Shown here one piece after another: positions 19,564 to 45,996 of a stretch of DNA of 64,000 nucleotides. The notes beneath the pieces are model-generated. The model was given only the letters and a program-made list of their open reading frames with translations. It was not told where the DNA came from and did no database searches. Numbering within the stretch: the stretch's first letter is position 1; every line of letters begins with the position of its first letter. Position numbers and translations under genes: made by a program. Source of the DNA: Promethearchaeota archaeon (GTDB lineage Archaea > Asgardarchaeota > Lokiarchaeia > Sigyniarchaeales > SOKP01). Location: positions 22,871-86,870 of the forward strand of contig JBHLON010000009.1 in assembly GCA_048940445.1 (NCBI GenBank), in the 5' to 3' direction.

Positions 19564-20628
19564 ATGACAGAAACTACAGAGACTCCTAAAAAACTCTCAA
19601 ATCTGGATAAGTTCCTTACACTATGGATATTCATAGCAATGGTTATGGGTATTTTGCTTTCTTACTTCATCCCCAGTTTTGAACAATTTCTTTCAATATT
19701 TCAAGTAGGTTATACAAATATACCAATTGCAATTGGGTTAATCTTAATGATGTATCCTCCTCTCGCCAAGGTGCATTATGAGGAATTAGGAGACGTATTT
19801 AAGGATAAAAAAGTTTTAGGTTTGGCTTTAATTCAAAATTGGTTAATTGGACCGTTTTTAATGTTCGTGCTCGCCATTATATTTCTAGGGAACTATCCAG
19901 GATATATGGTTGGAGTCATTCTTATAGGGCTTGCTAGATGTATTGCAATGGTTATTGTATGGAACGATTTAGCGGGAGGTAGTCGTGAATATGCTGCTGG
20001 TTTGGTAGCATTTAATAGCATATTTCAAGTAATCTTTTATAGCGTGTTTGCATGGTTTTATATTACATTATTACCCCATCTACTTGGTCTTCAATCTAAT
20101 GTTGTTAATATAGGAATAGGATCAATTGCAGAAAGCGTAATTATTTATCTGGGAATTCCATTTACGTTAGGATTTCTTACTCGTACTATATTGGTTAAAA
20201 AGAAAGGGCATGAATGGTATGCTAAAAAATTTATCCCTAAAGTAAGTCCAATCACATTAATTGCTCTCTTATTCACCATCATAGTAATGTTTGGGTTAAA
20301 AGGAAATATAATTGTATCAATTCCGTTAGATGTAGTTAAAATAGCTATTCCTCTGCTTCTTTACTTCATTTTGATGTTTTTGATCAGTTTTGCTCTGAGT
20401 AAAAAACTAGGTGCAGATTATCAGAAATCAACTAGTCTTTCGTTTACTGCTGCAAGTAATAATTTTGAACTCTCACTTGCTATTGCAGTATCAATATTTG
20501 GCTTAGGATCTAGTATTGCATTTGCTGCAGTCATTGGACCATTAATTGAAGTTCCCGTAATGATTTCCTTAGTAAATGTTGCAAAATTTTTCAAAAAGAA
20601 ATTTTATAGATCATCACTAAGAAGTTAG
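19564..20628 (+). CDS. acr3: ACR3-family arsenite efflux transporter
   Basis: [54 protein letters not shown] and [10 protein letters not shown] motifs. Confidence 0.95.
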
Positions 20629-37284: not shown

Positions 37285-39417
37285 ATGAGTTGTCATTTAC
37301 CTAATAAACCTAAACAAAAAAACGTATATGAAAAGTCAATAAATATTGCATTAGCTGGTAATCCAAATGTCGGTAAATCAGTCATATTTAATCAGTTAAC
37401 AGGGCTCTCACAAACGATAGGAAATTGGCCCGGAAAAACAGTAGAAAAAATGGAAGGATATTTAGATTTTCAAGGGTACCATTTTAATATTGTTGATTTA
37501 CCCGGAATTTATTCATTGTCAACATACAGTATAGAAGAAATTGTGAGTAGAGAGTTTATTGTTTCCGAAGATGTTGATATCATCATAAATGTTATTGATG
37601 GTACTAATCTTGAACGTAATCTATTTTTCACGTTCCAACTTTTAGAGTTACACGTTCCAATGATCCTTGCAATAAACCAAATGGATATTTTACACAAGAG
37701 AAATATAGATTTAGATTTTGATAAATTAGAGGATTTTTTCCAATTACCAGTTATGCCTGTTATTGCAGTACATGGGAAAGGCGTTCATCAACTTCTCGAA
37801 AAGGCAATAGAAATGCTAGTAGATCACCATTACCACCTACACCATCATGAAAATAAGAACAAGTGGAGGAAAGAACATCATCAGAGCCATTTTCATGAAA
37901 AAGTTGAAAAACGATCTTCATCAAATCGTAAGTTTATCTTTCCCGAATTAACAGATTTACTATCTTTCGGAAAAGAAGTTGAGATAAAAATTAAAGAACT
38001 CATAAAATTCTTTAAATCTAATCCAAACTCAATATCTAATCTTCACTATCCTTTGCGATTTTTAGCAATAAAACTTATAGAAAATGATGAAGAAATTCAA
38101 AAACTATTTCTAAATAATGAACTCTCTTCGAAGGCAATCCAAAAAGCAAATGATTTAAGAAATGAACTTGAAGTGCTTCATGGTGAAGAAATTGGTACTA
38201 TTATCTCTTCAGAAATTTATAATAATATTAATAAAGTTATACAACAAGTTCTAATTGTAAAATCGGGAAAAAATGCTAGGAAAATATCAATTGCAGATAA
38301 ACTAGATCATGTTACCACTCATTCCATATTTGGATACGTTATCTTAATTGTAGTAGTAATATTAATCTATATGTTTACTTTTTCAGTAGGAAATTTTCTT
38401 GGCGAATTAATAGATAATTGGTATGTGACTTGGACTGGTGGAATTCATTCATTATTTGGGGAAAACAATTTACTCATAAAGATTTTTTGGGATGGAGGAA
38501 TGGGGGGATTTTTAGGAGCAATTGGAGGAGTCTTAGTTTATGTAGTTCCATTTTTCTTCATAATTGAAATTTTGCAAGACTCTGGTTATTTACCACGTGC
38601 TGCATTTTTAATGGATAGGATCATGCACGTAATTGGAGTTCACGGAAAAACAATTATTCCGATGATACTCGGGTTTGGCTGTAATGTACCCGCTTGTGCT
38701 GGTTGTAGAATTATGGAGACTGAACGAGAAAAAAAAATATCAATTGCCTTGACTTCTCTTATACCTTGTGCTGCAACGATGACAGTTGTTATGGGACTGG
38801 TGGGACGATACTTGGGATTTGGATGGATTATTGTTCTTTTTGTGATAAATTTTTCAGTAATCTTAATTGTCGGTAGGATTTTAAATAAAACAATGCCTGG
38901 AGAGTGTACAGAATTGATTATGGAAATGCATGATTATCGCATGCCAAATTATAATGTAATAGTAAAACAGACGTGGTTAAGAAGTAAAGAATTTATTTAT
39001 AGAGCGCTTCCAATAATAATTATTTTAGGGATAGCTTTAGAAATACTATTGATTTTTAATGCGTTAGAACCAATAAATATAGTTTTATATCCAATATCCG
39101 TATTGTGGTTGGGTTTACCTGCTGCTGCTGGTATTTTTTTAATATATGGAATCTTACGTAAGGAATTAACACTAGTTCTTCTAGCTCTTTTTGCAGAGAA
39201 TTTGGGACTTTCTGTATTACAACTTCTAACTCCCGTTCAGATGATTGTATTTAGTTTGGTAACTATGCTTTACATTCCATGTTTCGCAACGATCATCATT
39301 ATTGCTAAACAAACGAATTGGAAATATGCACTACAGATTTCAGTGATGGAAATTGGCATAGCCTTACTTATTGGAGGTATTATTAACTGGGGATATATTA
39401 TTTTTTCATCTTTGTGA
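37285..39417 (+). CDS. feoB: Ferrous iron transporter B with a His-rich insertion
   Basis: GNPNVGKS, GNWPGKTVE, DLPGIYSL, NQMD, DSGYLPRAAF.MD, GFGCNVPA and LYIPC motifs. Confidence 0.96.
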   Translation: MSCHLPNKPKQKNVYEKSINIALAGNPNVGKSVIFNQLTGLSQTIGNWPGKTVEKMEGYLDFQGYHFNIVDLPGIYSLSTYSIEEIVSREFIVSEDVDIIINVIDGTNLERNLFFTFQLLELHVPMILAINQMDILHKRNIDLDFDKLEDFFQLPVMPVIAVHGKGVHQLLEKAIEMLVDHHYHLHHHENKNKWRKEHHQSHFHEKVEKRSSSNRKFIFPELTDLLSFGKEVEIKIKELIKFFKSNPNSISNLHYPLRFLAIKLIENDEEIQKLFLNNELSSKAIQKANDLRNELEVLHGEEIGTIISSEIYNNINKVIQQVLIVKSGKNARKISIADKLDHVTTHSIFGYVILIVVVILIYMFTFSVGNFLGELIDNWYVTWTGGIHSLFGENNLLIKIFWDGGMGGFLGAIGGVLVYVVPFFFIIEILQDSGYLPRAAFLMDRIMHVIGVHGKTIIPMILGFGCNVPACAGCRIMETEREKKISIALTSLIPCAATMTVVMGLVGRYLGFGWIIVLFVINFSVILIVGRILNKTMPGECTELIMEMHDYRMPNYNVIVKQTWLRSKEFIYRALPIIIILGIALEILLIFNALEPINIVLYPISVLWLGLPAAAGIFLIYGILRKELTLVLLALFAENLGLSVLQLLTPVQMIVFSLVTMLYIPCFATIIIIAKQTNWKYALQISVMEIGIALLIGGIINWGYIIFSSL

Positions 39418-39425
39418 AGTTCTAA

Positions 39426-40091
39426 TTATTTTTTCAGCAAAATTATCTGAAAAACACTTAAGAACTTTTTAATAGGAATTTGTTTTAATGGTTTAAAACC
39501 AGATATTTTTAGTTCTTTCAATATATTTCTCTGCATTTCGAACGAATGGGAAGTTAACTTTTCAATAAAACCCAGATAAAAGTTATAAAATAGTCTCAGT
39601 GAACTTTTGGTAGGTTCATGATGTTCAAAAATTAAAAATGTACCTCCACTTTTCAATACCCTATACACTTCAGATAACACATTGAGTCTTTGTTCCTTTT
39701 CCATCTCATGTAAAGCAGCTGAAATGATAACATGATCAAAGTACTCATTTGAAAATTTTAATCTATTTGCATCCATTACCTTAAATTCTAAGTTAGGATA
39801 TCTATTTTTCTCTCGTGCTCTGGCGATTTGACCAGAAGATAAGTCCACTCCTATAATTTCACAATCCTTATATAGCAATTTTGCGAGTAAAATGGGTAAT
39901 GTGCCAGTTCCACAGCATAAGTCTAAGACTCGGTCCTTTCTTTGAATGAATGGAGCCAAATTTAGAAACACACTAGTTCGAAGTATACTTTCTCCAACTG
40001 GAGTTAAACCGATTTTTAATCCAATATCATAAAATTGAGAAATAAATTGATTGTATACTTGTTTATATCGTTCTGATTGATATTTTGCCAT
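39426..40091 (-). CDS. Class I SAM methyltransferase (UbiE-like)
   Basis: VLDLCCGTG, GVDLS, ALHEM and EVYRVLKSGG motifs. Confidence 0.9.
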   Translation of the reverse strand: MAKYQSERYKQVYNQFISQFYDIGLKIGLTPVGESILRTSVFLNLAPFIQRKDRVLDLCCGTGTLPILLAKLLYKDCEIIGVDLSSGQIARAREKNRYPNLEFKVMDANRLKFSNEYFDHVIISAALHEMEKEQRLNVLSEVYRVLKSGGTFLIFEHHEPTKSSLRLFYNFYLGFIEKLTSHSFEMQRNILKELKISGFKPLKQIPIKKFLSVFQIILLKK

Positions 40092-40197: not shown

Positions 40198-40884
40198 ATG
40201 AAAAGAGACCAAAAACTTACAGATCATTTAATTCGATTCGCACATAAAATCGGCATTGATCTGATTGGTTTTGCGCATCCTAAAGGATATGAACGATTTA
40301 AAAAGGAGAACAGACCAGAAACTTTCTTAGAAAATGTAAATACTGTAATCGTAATTGGAATTCATGTATATGATATTATTCTTGACGCTTGGAGTCAAGA
40401 TCAAGCTACTGGTAAAAGTTTTCACTATTTAGATTCAATATTAGAAAGTCGAGCATACCGAATAAAGGATTTTTTATTTCAAAAAACATATAACTCTATT
40501 ATTCTTCCTTACAGTCCGGGGCTTTTTTTAAAAGATTCAGCAGCATTAGCTGGGCTAGGTCCAATAGGGAAAAGTAATTTATTTATTAGCAAAAATTTTG
40601 GGTCTCAAGTCAGGCTAAGAGCAATAGTAACTGAAGCTCCATTAAAAACAGGAAACCCTACAATAGGGAATGAATGCTGTAAAGGATGTGAATTATGTAT
40701 TGTTAACTGTCCAGCTAAGGCTTTGACTTCAGATGGCTATAATAAACAAGCCTGCTTGTCATATAATATTGCAAATCTGAGAATGCTTTCGGATTACACC
40801 TCAATTTGGTGTAATATTTGCATAGAAATTTGTCCCTATAGCAAAAAAGGCTTGAAAAGTAATCTAAAGGGATATTTTCACTAA
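40198..40884 (+). CDS. QueG-like (epoxyqueuosine reductase family) Fe-S protein
   Basis: AALAGLGPIGKSNL......GSQVRLRAIVTEAPL, C..C..C...CPAKA and CNICIEICP motifs. Confidence 0.8.
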   Translation: MKRDQKLTDHLIRFAHKIGIDLIGFAHPKGYERFKKENRPETFLENVNTVIVIGIHVYDIILDAWSQDQATGKSFHYLDSILESRAYRIKDFLFQKTYNSIILPYSPGLFLKDSAALAGLGPIGKSNLFISKNFGSQVRLRAIVTEAPLKTGNPTIGNECCKGCELCIVNCPAKALTSDGYNKQACLSYNIANLRMLSDYTSIWCNICIEICPYSKKGLKSNLKGYFH

Positions 40885-40989
40885 ATTAAAGTGTACTCCC
40901 TATTACCTATAGTTTAAAATTATAACTTTTAAATAAAACAAAATAGTTATAAAATAATAATCTAAACTATTTCCAAATATGGTAAACCA

Positions 40990-41745
40990 ATGAGTGAAGA
41001 AAAACCAAAATCAACTAGTTTAAAACAGAATAAACTTGTGGGCCCCGGGTTGGGGTTAATTATCATGGGAGCGGCATACCTTGTGTGGTGGTTAATATTC
41101 ATAGAAAATGCGATATTAGACCCAAGATGGGCTCATAATTTTACTTATGCCATTATAATTTTAAATGTAGGTTTAGCTTGGTATCACAAGACTCCATTAT
41201 CAAGAACCACTGCCATGTTTCAATCTTTTATGCTTCCTATAACAGCTAGTGGATCCTTTAACACTGTAATTTGTATCATTGTCTCTGCAATCATCTTTAC
41301 TATTTGGATCATTATTAGTATGCTTGAAAGGACTAAAGGAAAACATTATTTGGAGGACAAATTAAGTAAAAGAGGAAATAATTGGTTGAATATGCATACC
41401 CTAATCATTGCCTGGATTCTGGTAGGACACATGGGGTTAATGTTTTTTGTTGTTCGATTACCTCTAGAAGCTCAACTATACAATTACGGCGCTACTGCTG
41501 GATATCTTATGAATTTACCACCAGAAAGTCTTGAATATTCCACTTGGGCTTTTAATATAGGGTTATTTATTCTAGTTGCAATAATGCTATGGGAACAATA
41601 TAAAATGGGTTACAATGTCCAAAATAACCCATGGCCAAGAATAAGTTTTTGGATGGTACTTATTACCATGGCAGCTTCCCTAATTGCATTGGCAATTCAA
41701 AGTGTGACGATTGGCTTTGATTGGGTAAGTGTAGTCTATGGGTAG
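40990..41745 (+). CDS. Hypothetical membrane protein (6-7 TM, several His and Trp)
   Basis: Hydrophobic segments; WAHN, NMH and VGHM motifs; no family recognised. Confidence 0.7.
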   Translation: MSEEKPKSTSLKQNKLVGPGLGLIIMGAAYLVWWLIFIENAILDPRWAHNFTYAIIILNVGLAWYHKTPLSRTTAMFQSFMLPITASGSFNTVICIIVSAIIFTIWIIISMLERTKGKHYLEDKLSKRGNNWLNMHTLIIAWILVGHMGLMFFVVRLPLEAQLYNYGATAGYLMNLPPESLEYSTWAFNIGLFILVAIMLWEQYKMGYNVQNNPWPRISFWMVLITMAASLIALAIQSVTIGFDWVSVVYG

Positions 41746-41780
41746 AGTCTTTAATAAATAAGGAGATAAAGGAAATTTAT

Positions 41781-42857
41781 ATGAAAAGTGAAGATGTTCC
41801 ATTAAAACACACCGGAATGACTTCGGAAATTGAACTCCAAAAGCAATACTTCTATGAAGGTAAAATCTTTATCCTTCAAATAGAATCCACATTAAAATGT
41901 AATCAACTATGTGATTATTGCTATGCAGGAAGTACACCTGATAGTCCTCACGGAATGAATTCTGAAAAAATCAGAGAATTATTAGATTCTGCTTCTAAAC
42001 TAGGAGTTCATATGATTGATTGGTTGGGAGGTGATCCTCTCTTAAGAAACGATTGGTACGAGTTATGTAAATATGCTTTAGAGTTAGGATTCATCAATAA
42101 TATCTGGACAAGTGGTATCCCTTTAGCAAATCCAGATACAGCAAAAAAAGCAGTAGAGGTAACTGAGGGAGGATTTATCTCCACACATTTAGATACTCTT
42201 AATCTAGAATTATATAGTATGCTACATGGAAGTGAAGGATATGATGGCAATTCCGGAAAAATTAACCTTATTCTAAATGGAATTCAAAATACACTAGCTA
42301 ATGGGAAAGATCCAAGAGCAATGGTGAATTGCATTACCTATACTTCCCCCTTAGCAGATGGGGAAGCAAAAAGAATGATTTCTTATATGCAAGACGAATT
42401 TGGTATTAAAACCTGCTTAACATTATTCAATCCAGTCATAAATCGGAATACTAATGCTTCCTGGGAACCTAATCTTGCTCAAATTAAGGATGCATTTATT
42501 CACAGAGATAAAGTGAACTATCCAGATGATCCATCATGTGGACCAATGGATGTATCAAAATTTTACTGCGGTACAGTAATTTGTGTGACTTATGATGGTT
42601 GGATTACTCCTTGTTCGGTTATTCGTACCCAAGAGTTTGGTAATGTTAATGATCAGAAGCTTCATATCTTAGTTGAAAAACATAAAGAAAGACTTCTGTT
42701 TTTAGATTTTCGAGATCCTTCCAAGCTTCCTAGAAGTTGTGCTAATTGCGTTAACAATTCATTCTGTTTTGGATGTAGAAGTAGTGCATATTATTATAAA
42801 GGAGATATTTTAGCAGCCGATCCTAAATGCTACAAATTTACCCCCAAACCTTCTTGA
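41781..42857 (+). CDS. Radical SAM protein with a SPASM domain
   Basis: CNQLCDYC (CX3CX2C), LGGDPL, C..(DG.ITPCS)..CANC.....CFGCR..AY.......DP.C. ATG 41781 follows AAGGAG/AAGGA and is preferred over TTG 41721. Confidence 0.92.
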   Translation: MKSEDVPLKHTGMTSEIELQKQYFYEGKIFILQIESTLKCNQLCDYCYAGSTPDSPHGMNSEKIRELLDSASKLGVHMIDWLGGDPLLRNDWYELCKYALELGFINNIWTSGIPLANPDTAKKAVEVTEGGFISTHLDTLNLELYSMLHGSEGYDGNSGKINLILNGIQNTLANGKDPRAMVNCITYTSPLADGEAKRMISYMQDEFGIKTCLTLFNPVINRNTNASWEPNLAQIKDAFIHRDKVNYPDDPSCGPMDVSKFYCGTVICVTYDGWITPCSVIRTQEFGNVNDQKLHILVEKHKERLLFLDFRDPSKLPRSCANCVNNSFCFGCRSSAYYYKGDILAADPKCYKFTPKPS

Positions 42858-42904
42858 GGAAGATTAGTAGATGCATTAATTTTGATATAAAAAAATGGTA
42901 AAGA

Positions 42905-43708
42905 ATGAAACATAAAAAGTATGATTTTTCAGTATGGGATGTAAGTCAGTTTTATGCTGGTTCTGGTGGTAAACTATGGGAGCTCCTTATGGGTGAACAA
43001 ATCCATGTTGGTGGAGCAGAACAAACGGATTTTTTAGCAAGGAAAGTTGGAATTGATAGAAATGAGGATATTTATCTGTTAGACATTTGTTCTGCTTTGG
43101 GGGGCCCGGTAAGACATTTAGCAGAAAAGTATAGAATTAGAGCAGTTGGATTAGATATAACTCCTGAAATGATTGAAGAAGCTAAGGCACGAACCATAGG
43201 GAAACCATATTCGGATAGAATAGAATACCGGTTAGGATCAGCTTTAGATATACCTGCACATAGTAAAACTTTTGATGTTGTATGGGGACAAGATGCGTGG
43301 TGTTATATTAGAGACAAAGCAAGACTTATAGAAGAGGCTAATAGGGTTTTGAAATCTGGAGGCTTTTTAGCATTTACAGATTGGATCTGGGGTTCAATTA
43401 ATGCTCCCGAGAACGAAGTTGATCACCTGATGGAATTTATGGTGTTCCCAGATATGCAAACACTAGATGGATACATTAGGCTCATTGGAGATATAGGATT
43501 GTTCCTTATCGAACATCAAGATCTCGGTGATAATTTTGCTCATCATATGGATAATTATGTCTTGAACCTCCAAAGAAGTAAAGCGAGCATAGTTGAAGGA
43601 TTTGGAGAAGAACTGTATATTGAAGCAGAAAAAGGAGTACTTGCTTGGCAGAAAGCAGCTCATAATAAGTGGGTAAGCAGAGGTTTATGGATTGCTAAAA
43701 AGCCTTAA
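42905..43708 (+). CDS. SAM-dependent methyltransferase (resembles sarcosine/dimethylglycine or phosphoethanolamine N-methyltransferases)
   Basis: GEQIHVGG, LDICSALGG..R.LA, FDVVWGQDAWCY and RVLKSGG...FTD motifs. Confidence 0.85.
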   Translation: MKHKKYDFSVWDVSQFYAGSGGKLWELLMGEQIHVGGAEQTDFLARKVGIDRNEDIYLLDICSALGGPVRHLAEKYRIRAVGLDITPEMIEEAKARTIGKPYSDRIEYRLGSALDIPAHSKTFDVVWGQDAWCYIRDKARLIEEANRVLKSGGFLAFTDWIWGSINAPENEVDHLMEFMVFPDMQTLDGYIRLIGDIGLFLIEHQDLGDNFAHHMDNYVLNLQRSKASIVEGFGEELYIEAEKGVLAWQKAAHNKWVSRGLWIAKKP

Positions 43709-43743
43709 TGTTCCATAAAAAGTTTAATTTGACGGTTTAAAAT

Positions 43744-44547
43744 ATGAATTCAGCAGTTATAATATTTACAAAGGTACCAATTCCAGGGTTAGTAAAAACA
43801 CGTTTAACTCATAATACATGTTTAACACAACTAGATTCTGCTAAAATTGCTGAAGCAATGCTTAAAGACACGATTACATTAGCTTCGAAAACCAATACAG
43901 ATTCAATTCATCTAGGTTATTACCCTGATGAACATGTTGCTAAACTACATGAAATTATTAATTATATTAGAAGAGAGGGCAAACTAACTAAACCTCTTGA
44001 TTTTGTACTCCAAAATGGTTCAAATTTCGATCGACGGTTTGGATCAGTTGTACAGGAAGCTTTTCGAAAAGATTTTGAAATATTGGTAATTTTAGGTGCA
44101 GATTTACCCTTTCTAAGCCCCGAAATAATTAATATGGCTTTAGAATATTTAACAAAACACAAAGACGAGAGACCAATAATTCTTGGGCCATCTATAGGAG
44201 GGGGGATATATCTGATTGGTTTCACTAATAATTTTAATCCAAGTTGGTTTTCAGATTACCAATTATTTAGTAGTGGTTTAGAATTATCTAAAGTCGCTAA
44301 TTTCTGTAAAGAAAATAACTTTCTATTGAATTCTCTCCCTCCCTATGGAGACGTAGACATTGAAGAAGATTTAGTAACCCTAATATCTTATATCAATTTG
44401 CTTAAAAATTCAGAGAAATACGTTGGTTTCCATTATCCGTATTTTACTGCCAAAATCATAGAACAATTACGTCTTACTATTGTTGAAGAAAAAAATCAAA
44501 CACGTCAACGAAAAATCTCAAAAAAAGATGATTCCTCTTTGTTATGA
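43744..44547 (+). CDS. TIGR04282/DUF2064-type transferase (CofC-like fold; 'rSAM/selenodomain-associated transferase 1')
   Basis: IIFTKVPIPGLVKTRL, Q.G..F..R, ILGADLP, LGPSIGGGIYLIG and DVDIEEDL motifs. Confidence 0.85.
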   Translation: MNSAVIIFTKVPIPGLVKTRLTHNTCLTQLDSAKIAEAMLKDTITLASKTNTDSIHLGYYPDEHVAKLHEIINYIRREGKLTKPLDFVLQNGSNFDRRFGSVVQEAFRKDFEILVILGADLPFLSPEIINMALEYLTKHKDERPIILGPSIGGGIYLIGFTNNFNPSWFSDYQLFSSGLELSKVANFCKENNFLLNSLPPYGDVDIEEDLVTLISYINLLKNSEKYVGFHYPYFTAKIIEQLRLTIVEEKNQTRQRKISKKDDSSLL

Positions 44548-45317
44548 TTGTGAGTATTATTATCATTACTTTGAATGAAGAAGAAAATATTGAATTAGCC
44601 ATACAGAATGTTCGCCTAGCAGCACGATTGCCCTCTGGAAAAGTTGTTCCTATTGAAATTATTGTTAGTGATGGTGGATCCACAGATGGAACTCTTAAAA
44701 TTGCTCAAAAACTAGCGGATAAGGTGATCATTGGCTCACAAGGAAGATATAAGCAACTTAATACTGGTGCGAAGCGTGCTAAGGGAGAAATTCTACTCTT
44801 TTTACATGCTGATTCCATTTTACCAGAAGGTGCAATAGCTCGTATTCTACATAGATTAAGAGATCCAATGGTCATTGGAGGAGGGTTTAAAAAACACTGG
44901 AATTGGAATCCTAATACGAAACGATCATCATTTCTTAAGTTTCTCAGCTTCTGGTGGCAAGGAATAGGTAATTGGCTTGTAATCTTGTTGAGAACTTATC
45001 CTGGAGATAATGCAATCTTTGTTCGTAAATCCGTTTATAACAAAATTGGTGGCTTTCGCCCTTTATGGATATGCGAGGATTTTGACTTTTCACGGCGCTT
45101 GAAAAAGTATGGGAAGAAACGATTTATATATATACATTCCCCAATACTAACATCAACTAGGCGATATGAAAAGTATGGATTCTTATATACAAATCTAATA
45201 TGGTTTTTTATATATTTGTTCTGGCGTATAGGTATGCCCCAAGAACGCCTAAAAGACAAATTTAATAAATACATAATAACTCCAGAGAGAGAGTATAGAA
45301 AATATCTTAGATTTTAA
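44544..45317 (+). CDS. TIGR04283-type GT2 glycosyltransferase ('rSAM/selenodomain-associated transferase 2')
   Basis: LNEEENI, VSDGGSTDGT, GR..QLN.GA, LFLHAD, GDNAIFVR, GGF....ICED and TSTRR motifs; ATGA overlap with the upstream gene. Confidence 0.88.
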   Translation: MIVSIIIITLNEEENIELAIQNVRLAARLPSGKVVPIEIIVSDGGSTDGTLKIAQKLADKVIIGSQGRYKQLNTGAKRAKGEILLFLHADSILPEGAIARILHRLRDPMVIGGGFKKHWNWNPNTKRSSFLKFLSFWWQGIGNWLVILLRTYPGDNAIFVRKSVYNKIGGFRPLWICEDFDFSRRLKKYGKKRFIYIHSPILTSTRRYEKYGFLYTNLIWFFIYLFWRIGMPQERLKDKFNKYIITPEREYRKYLRF

Positions 45318-45372
45318 GAGTTTGACAGAATTAAAAATTATAACAATAAAAAATTTAAAAGAAAAAAAATGA

Positions 45373-45996
45373 GTGGTGATTAGTATGAGAATTGGTATTA
45401 TTGGAACAGGAAACATTGGCCGCACGCTCGGTAAGAAATGGATTAATGCTGGACATCAGGTTAAATTTGGAACTCGCAACCTAAGTAAGGAAGATACTAT
45501 ATCTTTTGTAAAAAGTCTGGGTAGCAATGCTTCGTTTTCAAACATTAAAGAAGCAATTAGCACTAGTGAAATCATTGTACTTGCTATTCCAGGAAGTGTT
45601 GTGCAAGAATTTTTTAGTGCTTATGGAAAAGATCTAACGGGGAAGGTTATAATCGATCCCTCAAATAATATTAACGCTGAGACTATGAACAGCTTACAAT
45701 ACTTTAACAAATTCGTTGAAGAGTCTGAATATTATAGAGCATTCAACAGTTTGGGATGGGAGAATTATGATAATCCTACATTCGGAACATTAAAAGCAGA
45801 TTTACTTTATTGTGGATCAAATAATAAAGGCCAAAGTAAGGTTGAACAGCTTATTAAGAACGTTGGTCTTAACCCAATCTGTATAGGTGGACTTGAGGTT
45901 ATTTCGATTGTAGATTCAATACTAGGGGTATGGTTTCAATTAGCATTGAAGAAAGGCTATGGCAGGCATCTAGCCTTTAAAGTATTAAAAGATTAA
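45373..45996 (+). CDS. F420-dependent NADP oxidoreductase-like dinucleotide-binding protein
   Basis: IGIIGTGNIG, GH.V.FGTR, LAIP, GKVIID.SN and RAFN motifs. Confidence 0.82.
   Translation: MVISMRIGIIGTGNIGRTLGKKWINAGHQVKFGTRNLSKEDTISFVKSLGSNASFSNIKEAISTSEIIVLAIPGSVVQEFFSAYGKDLTGKVIIDPSNNINAETMNSLQYFNKFVEESEYYRAFNSLGWENYDNPTFGTLKADLLYCGSNNKGQSKVEQLIKNVGLNPICIGGLEVISIVDSILGVWFQLALKKGYGRHLAFKVLKD

Follow-up and report, generated by a model that had tools for sequence, protein, structure and literature searches.

Two described systems come closest to the locus reported here. In bacterial arsenosugar clusters, the radical S-adenosylmethionine (SAM) enzyme ArsS and the methyltransferase ArsM are encoded beside transferases of the DUF2064 (TIGR04282) and TIGR04283 types and a membrane protein. 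ArsS adenosylates dimethylarsenite to 5'-deoxy-5'-dimethylarsinoyladenosine (PMC13598754), and in Mycobacterium tuberculosis MtxS (Rv0539) makes the decaprenyl-phosphate-linked donor of methylthioxylose (MTX), which MtxT (Rv0541c) transfers (PMC8780516, PMC12088412). Here we describe a related gene run in 64,000 nt of contig JBHLON010000009.1 (positions 22,871 to 86,870; hereafter the window) of a Promethearchaeota archaeon, an Asgard host whose closest relatives come from Promethearchaeota metagenome-assembled genomes (MAGs). This locus forms a biosynthetic cassette, conserved and horizontally mobile, that combines a radical SAM enzyme (rSAM) of the SPASM subgroup and a class I SAM methyltransferase with a DUF2064 protein, a TIGR04283-like family 2 glycosyltransferase (GT2) and a seven-transmembrane (7-TM) protein. 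In appearance it is a re-tooled form of the pathways by which bacteria make arsenic sugars and methylthio sugars, and nothing here ties it to arsenic.

A conserved five-gene cassette

The conserved unit consists of these five genes, and their linkage goes far beyond chance. Gene families were assigned by Pfam and NCBIfam scans of the window proteins, and open reading frames (ORFs) were clustered across 124 related loci (34 from a set with one genome per species, 80 from a metagenome scan and 10 from Methanomicrobiales), which belong to Asgard archaea, Halobacteriota, Methanoculleus, Thermoplasmata and unassigned metagenome contigs. Per-gene counts among them are lower bounds, many contigs being short: the rSAM gene is found in 100 loci, the methyltransferase gene in 86, the DUF2064 gene in 71, the 7-TM and TIGR04283-like GT2 genes in 56 each, and other types of GT2 in 11 further loci. 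Where at least 5 kb is available on either side of the rSAM gene (32 loci), the methyltransferase gene is present in 30, the GT2 gene in 26, the DUF2064 gene in 24, the 7-TM gene in 23 and the complete set in 18. The invariant core is the rSAM/SPASM gene with the methyltransferase gene, which always lies directly 3' of it; the DUF2064 gene usually comes next, and the GT2 and 7-TM genes, usually adjacent, travel as a pair. The arrangement seen in the window, with the rSAM gene two genes upstream of the DUF2064/GT2 pair, is kept in related loci, and the rSAM/methyltransferase pair stays linked to the transferase pair across phyla; an earlier note on this DNA had named the absence of this linkage in related genomes as grounds for refuting its reading.

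That note described seven co-oriented, closely spaced genes at window positions 40198-45996 as one cluster. All seven ORFs are there (Table 1), with Pfam and NCBIfam matches that fit the gene list; the gaps between them, in order, are 105, 35, 47, 35, -4 and 55 nt, and the ATGA overlap of the DUF2064 and GT2 genes indicates translational coupling. The conserved core, however, takes in only five of the seven. None of the 124 loci contains a counterpart of the F420/NADP oxidoreductase-like gene, which is a neighbour rather than a cassette member, and feoB lies beside the cassette in a single locus. The QueG-like gene and a gene that the note had left out, encoding a UbiE/MenG-like class I methyltransferase, each occur in 12 loci, nearly all of Asgard type, and are lineage-specific accessories, not part of the core. 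In Asgard-type loci such as L007, L008, L018, L020 and L021, the UbiE-like gene accompanies the cassette; it is divergent in the window, and some relatives have it immediately 5' of the 7-TM gene in the same orientation. The G+C content is slightly raised over 42-46 kb of the window (0.34-0.35, against 0.27-0.32 in the flanks).

Sequence identity to the rSAM is 65-92% for homologues from Promethearchaeota, Thor-, Hermod-, Odin- and Hodarchaeota and peat Halobacteriota, and 40-55% for those from Methanoculleus, ANME-2, Methanoperedens, Thermoplasmata and one Zixibacteria MAG. The cassette is carried by 23 of 301 Asgard genomes (8 of the 90 of high quality) and by 9 of the 27 genomes of the window's own genus, and the rSAM gene occurs in 19 of 151 Methanomicrobiales genomes; it is an accessory element, widely shared and patchy at strain level. 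When cassette-free genomes of the same genus were compared for an empty site next to feoB, synteny was lost beyond that gene. The rSAM tree suggests transfer of the cassette between phyla, because a clade of peat Halobacteriota (support 100/100) nests within the Promethearchaeota clade (99/98) and true Hodarchaeota fall outside it. The rSAMs of these peat Halobacteriota/Methanomicrobia (loci L023, L025, L026, L028, L029, L030 and L032) are 65-67% identical to their counterparts in L007-L022, against only about 49% for those of Hodarchaeota (L034 and L035). The Halobacteriota loci of the nested clade carry a different, 353-aa GT2 gene upstream of the rSAM gene and lack the 7-TM gene.

The same distribution bears on one possible product, the N-methylated aminopentanetetrol (APT) head group of archaeal lipids, which is hardly credible. 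APT, a C5 polyol amine that bears between one and three N-methyl groups (PMC11346949, PMC6423904), would suit a ribose-derived unit and an N-methyltransferase-like enzyme, and some Methanoculleus do carry the cassette. APT lipids, however, are described as a hallmark of the whole order Methanomicrobiales (PMC2686161, PMC6423904), and this head group was rejected because the rSAM was found in only a minority of its genomes; moreover, APT is linked by a phosphodiester, which calls for a cytidine diphosphate (CDP)-alcohol transferase rather than a GT2.

Table 1. Genes of the cassette and its surroundings (positions are those of the window)
Feature	Position	Strand	Details
QueG-like Fe-S protein	40198-40884	+	228 aa
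7-TM membrane protein	40990-41745	+	251 aa
Radical SAM/SPASM enzyme	41781-42857 (ORF open from TTG 41721)	+	358 aa from ATG 41781
Class I SAM methyltransferase	42905-43708	+	267 aa
DUF2064 / TIGR04282-like protein	43744-44547	+	267 aa
GT2, TIGR04283-like	44544-45317	+	257 aa
F420/NADP oxidoreductase-like gene	45373-45996	+	F420_oxidored 62 bits
UbiE/MenG-like class I SAM methyltransferase	39426-40091	-	221 aa
feoB	37285-39417		upstream of cassette
acr3 arsenite efflux gene	19594-20583		bona fide, 444.7 bits

Other genes are met near the cassette from time to time. A B12-binding rSAM gene, paired with a gene for a 277-aa protein of unknown kind, is found near it in 9 loci (L055, L061, L077, L078, L080, L081, L118, L121 and L125), a small DUF3795 gene separates the methyltransferase gene from the DUF2064 gene in 6 loci and lies nearby in 2 more (L085-L095, L131), and polyprenyl synthase and DUF373/DUF7121 genes are neighbours in 5 and 6 loci, respectively.

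The radical SAM enzyme and its methyltransferase partner

The rSAM most likely starts at the ATG at 41781, because its homologues start there, and would therefore not overlap the membrane protein gene. It matches PF04055 (43.7 bits), has a CX3CX2C motif, contains the LGGDP motif singled out by the earlier note, and belongs to the SPASM subgroup by motif, with C40, C44 and C47 as well as C263, C278, C320, C323, C329, C332 and C350 invariant in the alignment; PF13186 is recorded on many of its homologues. Its scores fall far below every NCBIfam cut-off: TIGR04053, the best, gives 79.5 bits against 395, AhbC, AhbD and NirJ give 61-78 bits (AhbD 74.5, cut-off 500) against 500-650, PqqE 67 against 381 and MftC 48.9 against 265. 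A structural model (pLDDT 87) gives full-length fold matches with TM-scores of 0.5-0.65, the top Foldseek match being BlsE. The enzyme represents an unnamed SPASM family, because BlsE, SkfB, PqqE, anSME, SuiB and CteB are matched about equally well. With these SPASM/twitch enzymes and AhbD/NirJ it shares the CX3CX2C core and the seven-Cys C-terminal domain; it differs from them in that it has no RRE-type N-terminal domain, the core beginning near residue 30, and is always paired with or fused to a methyltransferase.

Two further candidate properties were set aside. Enzymes that modify glycerol dialkyl glycerol tetraether (GDGT) lipids include the glycerol monoalkyl glycerol tetraether (GMGT) synthase Gms, which exceeds 400 aa and carries a COG4001 domain (PMC11214058); the cassette rSAM, with 358 aa and neither COG4001 nor another extra domain, is excluded from this and other GDGT-modifying types. 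Likewise, flags for an internal TGA in the Methanomicrobiales homologues reflect the stop codon only, and not selenocysteine.

SPASM enzymes are often peptide maturases, and the weak matches to PqqE, MftC and sactipeptide maturases, together with the use of a GT2 (MftF) and a methyltransferase in mycofactocin biosynthesis, would be in keeping with a peptide- or cofactor-maturation cassette of the mycofactocin type, in which the rSAM acts on a peptide or protein and glycosylation and methylation follow. This reading is very unlikely. Besides the missing RRE-type domain on the rSAM, the intergenic gaps of the window, at most 105 nt, are too short to hold a precursor gene, no non-core ORF of at least 70 aa recurs across the loci (shorter ORFs were not clustered), neither a precursor nor an RRE gene is present, and MftC and MftF give only 48.9 and 29.2 bits against cut-offs of 265 and 280.

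The cassette methyltransferase (Methyltransf_11, 66.5 bits) is of the structural type shared by phosphoethanolamine N-methyltransferases (PEAMTs), sarcosine/dimethylglycine N-methyltransferase (SDMT) and RebM. Its full-length PDB matches are plant and Plasmodium PEAMTs (E 1e-16 to 1e-13) and also take in an SDMT and sugar O- and C-methyltransferases, so that the earlier description as N-methyltransferase-like holds for the fold only. Similarity to the PEAMT, SDMT and RebM types is full-length and includes the substrate lid, at the level of fold and lid only; its best NCBIfam score, on the SDMT model NF041675, is 81.9 bits against a cut-off of 550, which places it outside that family. The GEQIHVGG motif and two cysteines noted earlier are both present. 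Among 34 family members, D159 is invariant, and Y17, W25, H34, D130, W132, C133, Y134 and W160 are kept in at least 90%; conserved aromatic residues are many, and C133 is the only cysteine conserved to this degree.

These properties weigh on an organoarsenical reading of the cassette, in which its methyltransferase or the ArsM of the genome would methylate As(III), the SPASM rSAM would form a C-As bond and the transferases would build an arsenosugar or arsenolipid with substituted enzymes. Annotation links the transferase pair to arsenosugars, and plasmids carry this pair beside ArsS; acr3 is found about 20 kb away in the window and stands directly upstream of the rSAM gene in L109, and a true ArsM is encoded elsewhere in the genome (335 bits, above the cut-off). 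However, the rSAM reaches only 36.9 bits on the ArsS model TIGR04167 (cut-off 300), through the N-terminal rSAM core alone, and the genome has no ArsS, the best match anywhere scoring 38.6 bits. ArsM needs a Cys triad. The cassette methyltransferase gives 20-45 bits on ArsM models (NF008823 41.8 bits, cut-off 263; NF038099 20.3 bits, cut-off 400), and an ArsM-type As(III) site is absent from it because a single cysteine is conserved across the family. Within the genus, ArsM is encoded in 4 of the 10 genomes that have the cassette and in 4 of the 17 that lack it, which is no association, and acr3 is near the cassette in only that 1 of the 124 loci, with no ars gene recurring. An arsenic product is thus improbable. 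The earlier view of a variant TIGR04282/TIGR04283 system in which both ArsS and ArsM have been replaced stands, and the rSAM, whose placement in a known family would by the note's own criterion have refuted it, falls into no named family; the metalloid link that it proposed gains no positive evidence from ArsM co-occurrence, acr3 linkage or the distribution of SelD, which is encoded in 40 of 41 genomes of the genus with or without the cassette.

Two observations on the same genomes stand apart from the cassette. On another contig (G000:C4:39769-40599 and C4:37082-37318), the ArsM gene lies 2.5 kb from an ORF for a 302-aa rSAM, and the two may form a separate arsenic-related unit. The SelD genes (G000:C2:48483-49280 and those of 39 other genomes), present as two copies in many genomes, contain an in-frame TGA in every match listed; because this holds across the genus, selenocysteine is apparently in use in these Asgard archaea, and SelD would itself be a selenoprotein.

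The likeness of the methyltransferase to PEAMTs and SDMT has another possible meaning, namely a phospho-base pathway resembling that of CDP-choline and LicC. Here the PEAMT-like enzyme would N-methylate a phospho-amine, the amine precursor of which the rSAM would make, for example by decarboxylation, a CofC-like DUF2064 protein would convert the product to a nucleoside diphosphate (NDP) derivative, and membrane proteins would attach the resulting zwitterionic head group or decoration. The conserved aromatics of the methyltransferase recall onium-binding sites, the DUF2064 protein is similar to CofC, an enzyme with a phospho-acid as substrate, and BlsE, the top fold match of the rSAM, is a decarboxylase. 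On the other hand, BlsE is not set apart from other SPASM folds, the SDMT score is far under its cut-off and the structural neighbours include sugar methyltransferases, it is hard to see what the GT2 would do in phospho-base transfer, and the surroundings of the cassette in the 124 loci show no recurrent transferase of the CDP-alcohol or LicD type. We regard this pathway as quite unlikely.

A natural fusion also points away from N-methylation. Whereas the proteins P0241 and P0243 join the rSAM to a methyltransferase that keeps the motifs of the cassette enzyme, P0242 (679 aa, from a Proteobacteria MAG) has, in place of the class I methyltransferase, a complete homocysteine S-methyltransferase domain (PF02574, 182.9 bits) that retains the GGCCG motif. 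The homocysteine S-methyltransferase family methylates thiols and selenols, and the fusion hints at a thiol or selenol as the methyl acceptor. No separate homocysteine S-methyltransferase gene is found in the related loci.

Transferases, membrane protein and a proposed pathway

The DUF2064 protein, encoded by the only DUF2064 gene of the genome, matches PF09837 with 49.4 bits (cut-off 25.8) and TIGR04282 with 100.8 bits (cut-off 134), and is best described as a DUF2064 member outside the curated TIGR04282 equivalog. A 31-bit match to CofC and an alignment with PDB 3cgx, a 'putative nucleotide-diphospho-sugar transferase' (E 8e-12), make it a putative CofC-like nucleotidyltransferase. The GT2 (PF00535, 78.4 bits) aligns with positions 1-219 of the 221 of TIGR04283 and, at 179.1 bits, misses the cut-off of 182 by 3 bits, as befits a borderline, close relative; it has the genomic context expected of TIGR04283, next to a DUF2064 gene and with an rSAM gene upstream, and is 33-35% identical to the products of plasmid genes annotated as TIGR04283.

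Five TIGR04283-annotated loci, four of them with further pathway genes, served as canonical comparison. That of Acinetobacter portensis (L051) has, in this order, ArsS, a TVP38/flavin adenine dinucleotide (FAD) oxidoreductase, DUF547, TIGR04283, TIGR04282, a methyltransferase, PiT and MtnP, and those of Burkholderia thailandensis and B. glumae have, likewise in order, MtnP, TIGR04283, TIGR04282 and an FAD oxidoreductase; ArsS is annotated about 7 kb away in B. glumae (L134), and the stretch from B. thailandensis shows none. Hymenobacter has TIGR04283 ahead of an NAD-dependent epimerase/dehydratase, a short-chain dehydrogenase/reductase and ArsS, and in Gloeothece the TIGR04283 gene stands alone amid unrelated genes. 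MtnP, the S-methyl-5'-thioadenosine (MTA) phosphorylase, thus adjoins the TIGR04283/TIGR04282 pair in three of the four plasmid loci with pathway genes (two Burkholderia, one Acinetobacter), and ArsS is annotated close by in two of these three. The cassette resembles the ArsS/ArsM clusters in the presence of an rSAM, a methyltransferase, both transferases and a membrane protein. It differs in that the rSAM is of SPASM rather than ArsS type and the methyltransferase is not ArsM, in having a novel 7-TM protein where those clusters have a TVP38/DedA-FAD fusion, and in the lack of linked MTA phosphorylase, PiT, DUF547, thioredoxin/CcdA or ars genes.

The 7-TM protein belongs to no Pfam family. The earlier note had called it His/Trp-rich; it is rich in Trp (4.8%) and not in His (2.0%), although three His are invariant among the residues shared by 18 homologues (D44, R46, W47, H49, N50, E113, H136, H147, R156, E179 and E202). 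Its AlphaFold model (pLDDT 80) consists of seven long helices, for which Foldseek finds no relative at E <= 0.001 and the best VIA-align match (Z 6.7) is one among unrelated helical bundles; the ESM Atlas holds no informative cluster. The protein represents a small family tied to the cassette, because a profile search of 1.84 billion representative proteins returned only 39 clusters. Variants of about 390 aa carry an N-terminal ferritin-like (rubrerythrin/COQ7-like) domain (P0248, P0255 and L070:5380-6552 on the minus strand), and these fusions may reflect metal or redox chemistry at the membrane; their architecture recalls membrane-bound ferritin/VIT1-type proteins. On the basis of adjacency only, we propose the 7-TM protein as the membrane partner of the GT2.

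Taken together with the two template systems, these features lead us to favour, tentatively and with rather less than even confidence, a pathway to a methylated 5-deoxypentose derived from SAM: the rSAM and the methyltransferase together would make or tailor this sugar, the DUF2064 protein would activate it, and its onward transfer at the membrane would fall to the GT2 and the 7-TM protein. The cassette would then work like the ArsS arsenosugar and mycobacterial MTX systems, in which a SAM-derived 5'-substituted 5'-deoxyadenosine would be phosphorolysed to a 5-deoxy-5-X-pentose-1-phosphate, converted to an NDP-sugar by the DUF2064/TIGR04282 protein and handed on by an MtxS-like GT2 of TIGR04283 type, probably to a polyprenyl-phosphate carrier or a membrane acceptor. 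Such a sequence of phosphorolysis, activation and transfer fits the canonical loci, because MtnP repeatedly adjoins the transferase pair. In the archaeon, phosphorolysis might be supplied by an unlinked MTA phosphorylase, a true member of which (300 bits) is encoded elsewhere in the genome; the task of the rSAM and the methyltransferase would be to create or tailor either the methylated substituent X or the sugar, and that of the 7-TM protein to flip the lipid-linked sugar, to transfer it or to serve as its acceptor. For X, a methyl-S/Se or onium group seems more likely than arsenic. In Asgard archaea, further tailoring particular to the lineage would come from the small QueG-like Fe-S protein and the UbiE-like methyltransferase. 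As the product, a rare sugar decoration of the envelope or of lipids, variable from strain to strain, seems most likely, and the strain-level patchiness of the cassette fits such an accessory decoration.

The parallel with MTX (MtxS, MtxT, MTA phosphorylase and an epimerase) is one of proposed logic: a small GT2 puts a 5-deoxy-5-substituted pentose derived from SAM on a lipid carrier, from which it goes to a membrane protein (PMC8780516, PMC12088412). The plasmid loci resemble this system in that the GT2/DUF2064 pair adjoins an MTA phosphorylase or an epimerase, whereas the cassette has an rSAM and a methyltransferase in place of epimerase and phosphorylase, and its membrane partner is not a GT-C enzyme. 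In a more specific form, which is possible if somewhat unlikely, the cassette would make an undescribed SAM-derived 5-deoxy-5-(methyl-chalcogen or onium) pentose, displayed on the archaeal envelope through a lipid carrier. The SPASM rSAM would then perform a new reaction, by forming an adenosyl adduct or a C-S or C-Se bond, the new 7-TM family would handle the lipid-linked sugar, and the whole would be an archaeal counterpart of methylthioxylose and the arsenosugars.

Several points weigh against the pentose pathway. It is drawn by analogy, and its five families have no characterised product, substrate or activity. An MTA phosphorylase is linked to the cassette in none of the 124 loci, the GT2 lies just below and the DUF2064 protein well below the cut-offs of their TIGR families, and the thiol hint comes from one fused protein on one contig. 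SPASM enzymes are not known to form adenosyl adducts, and the rSAM may instead modify a sugar, lipid or peptide. The role of the 7-TM protein is read from adjacency only, and its ferritin-like fusions may point to metal handling. Finally, the link to MTX presumes that Rv0539 is a TIGR04283 protein and Rv0540 a DUF2064 protein; the literature searched does not mention Rv0540, and its mentions of TIGR04282 or DUF2064 add nothing on the function of the pair.

Accessory proteins and biological meaning

Of the two Asgard-type accessory proteins, the QueG-like one has two [4Fe-4S] motifs and scores 55 bits on the QueG model TIGR00276 (below its cut-off of 200) and 46 bits on RDH. It is much shorter than QueG (380-437 aa), and alignment is confined to the core that bears the two Fe-S motifs; in epoxyqueuosine reductase 5d6s it aligns to the catalytic core, residues 158-276. 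It is possibly a cobalamin-dependent reductase. The UbiE-like methyltransferase matches Pfam Methyltransf_25 with 86 bits and, as its best NCBIfam model, UbiE with 89.5 bits against a cut-off of 216.

New in this analysis are the adjacency of MtnP in canonical loci, the homocysteine-methyltransferase and ferritin-like fusions, the very small 7-TM family, the strain-level patchiness and the rejection of the lipid-head-group and GMGT readings. For three of the five core components (rSAM, methyltransferase and 7-TM protein), no member of the family has been characterised, even though the cassette, at 40-80% identity of the rSAM, is common to Asgard archaea, methane-cycling archaea (Methanoperedens, ANME-2, Methanoculleus and peat Halobacteriota) and some bacteria of anoxic sediments. 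Cultured Methanoculleus species carry it, which makes it experimentally tractable; rSAM homologues are on record for M. sediminis, M. methanifontis and the strains Wushi-C6 and YWC-01. The identity of its product would add a new radical SAM reaction and would clarify the general role of the widespread DUF2064/TIGR04283 pair, at present 'arsenosugar' by association only, and it could bring to light, in the archaea most closely related to eukaryotes, a surface or lipid sugar that differs among strains.

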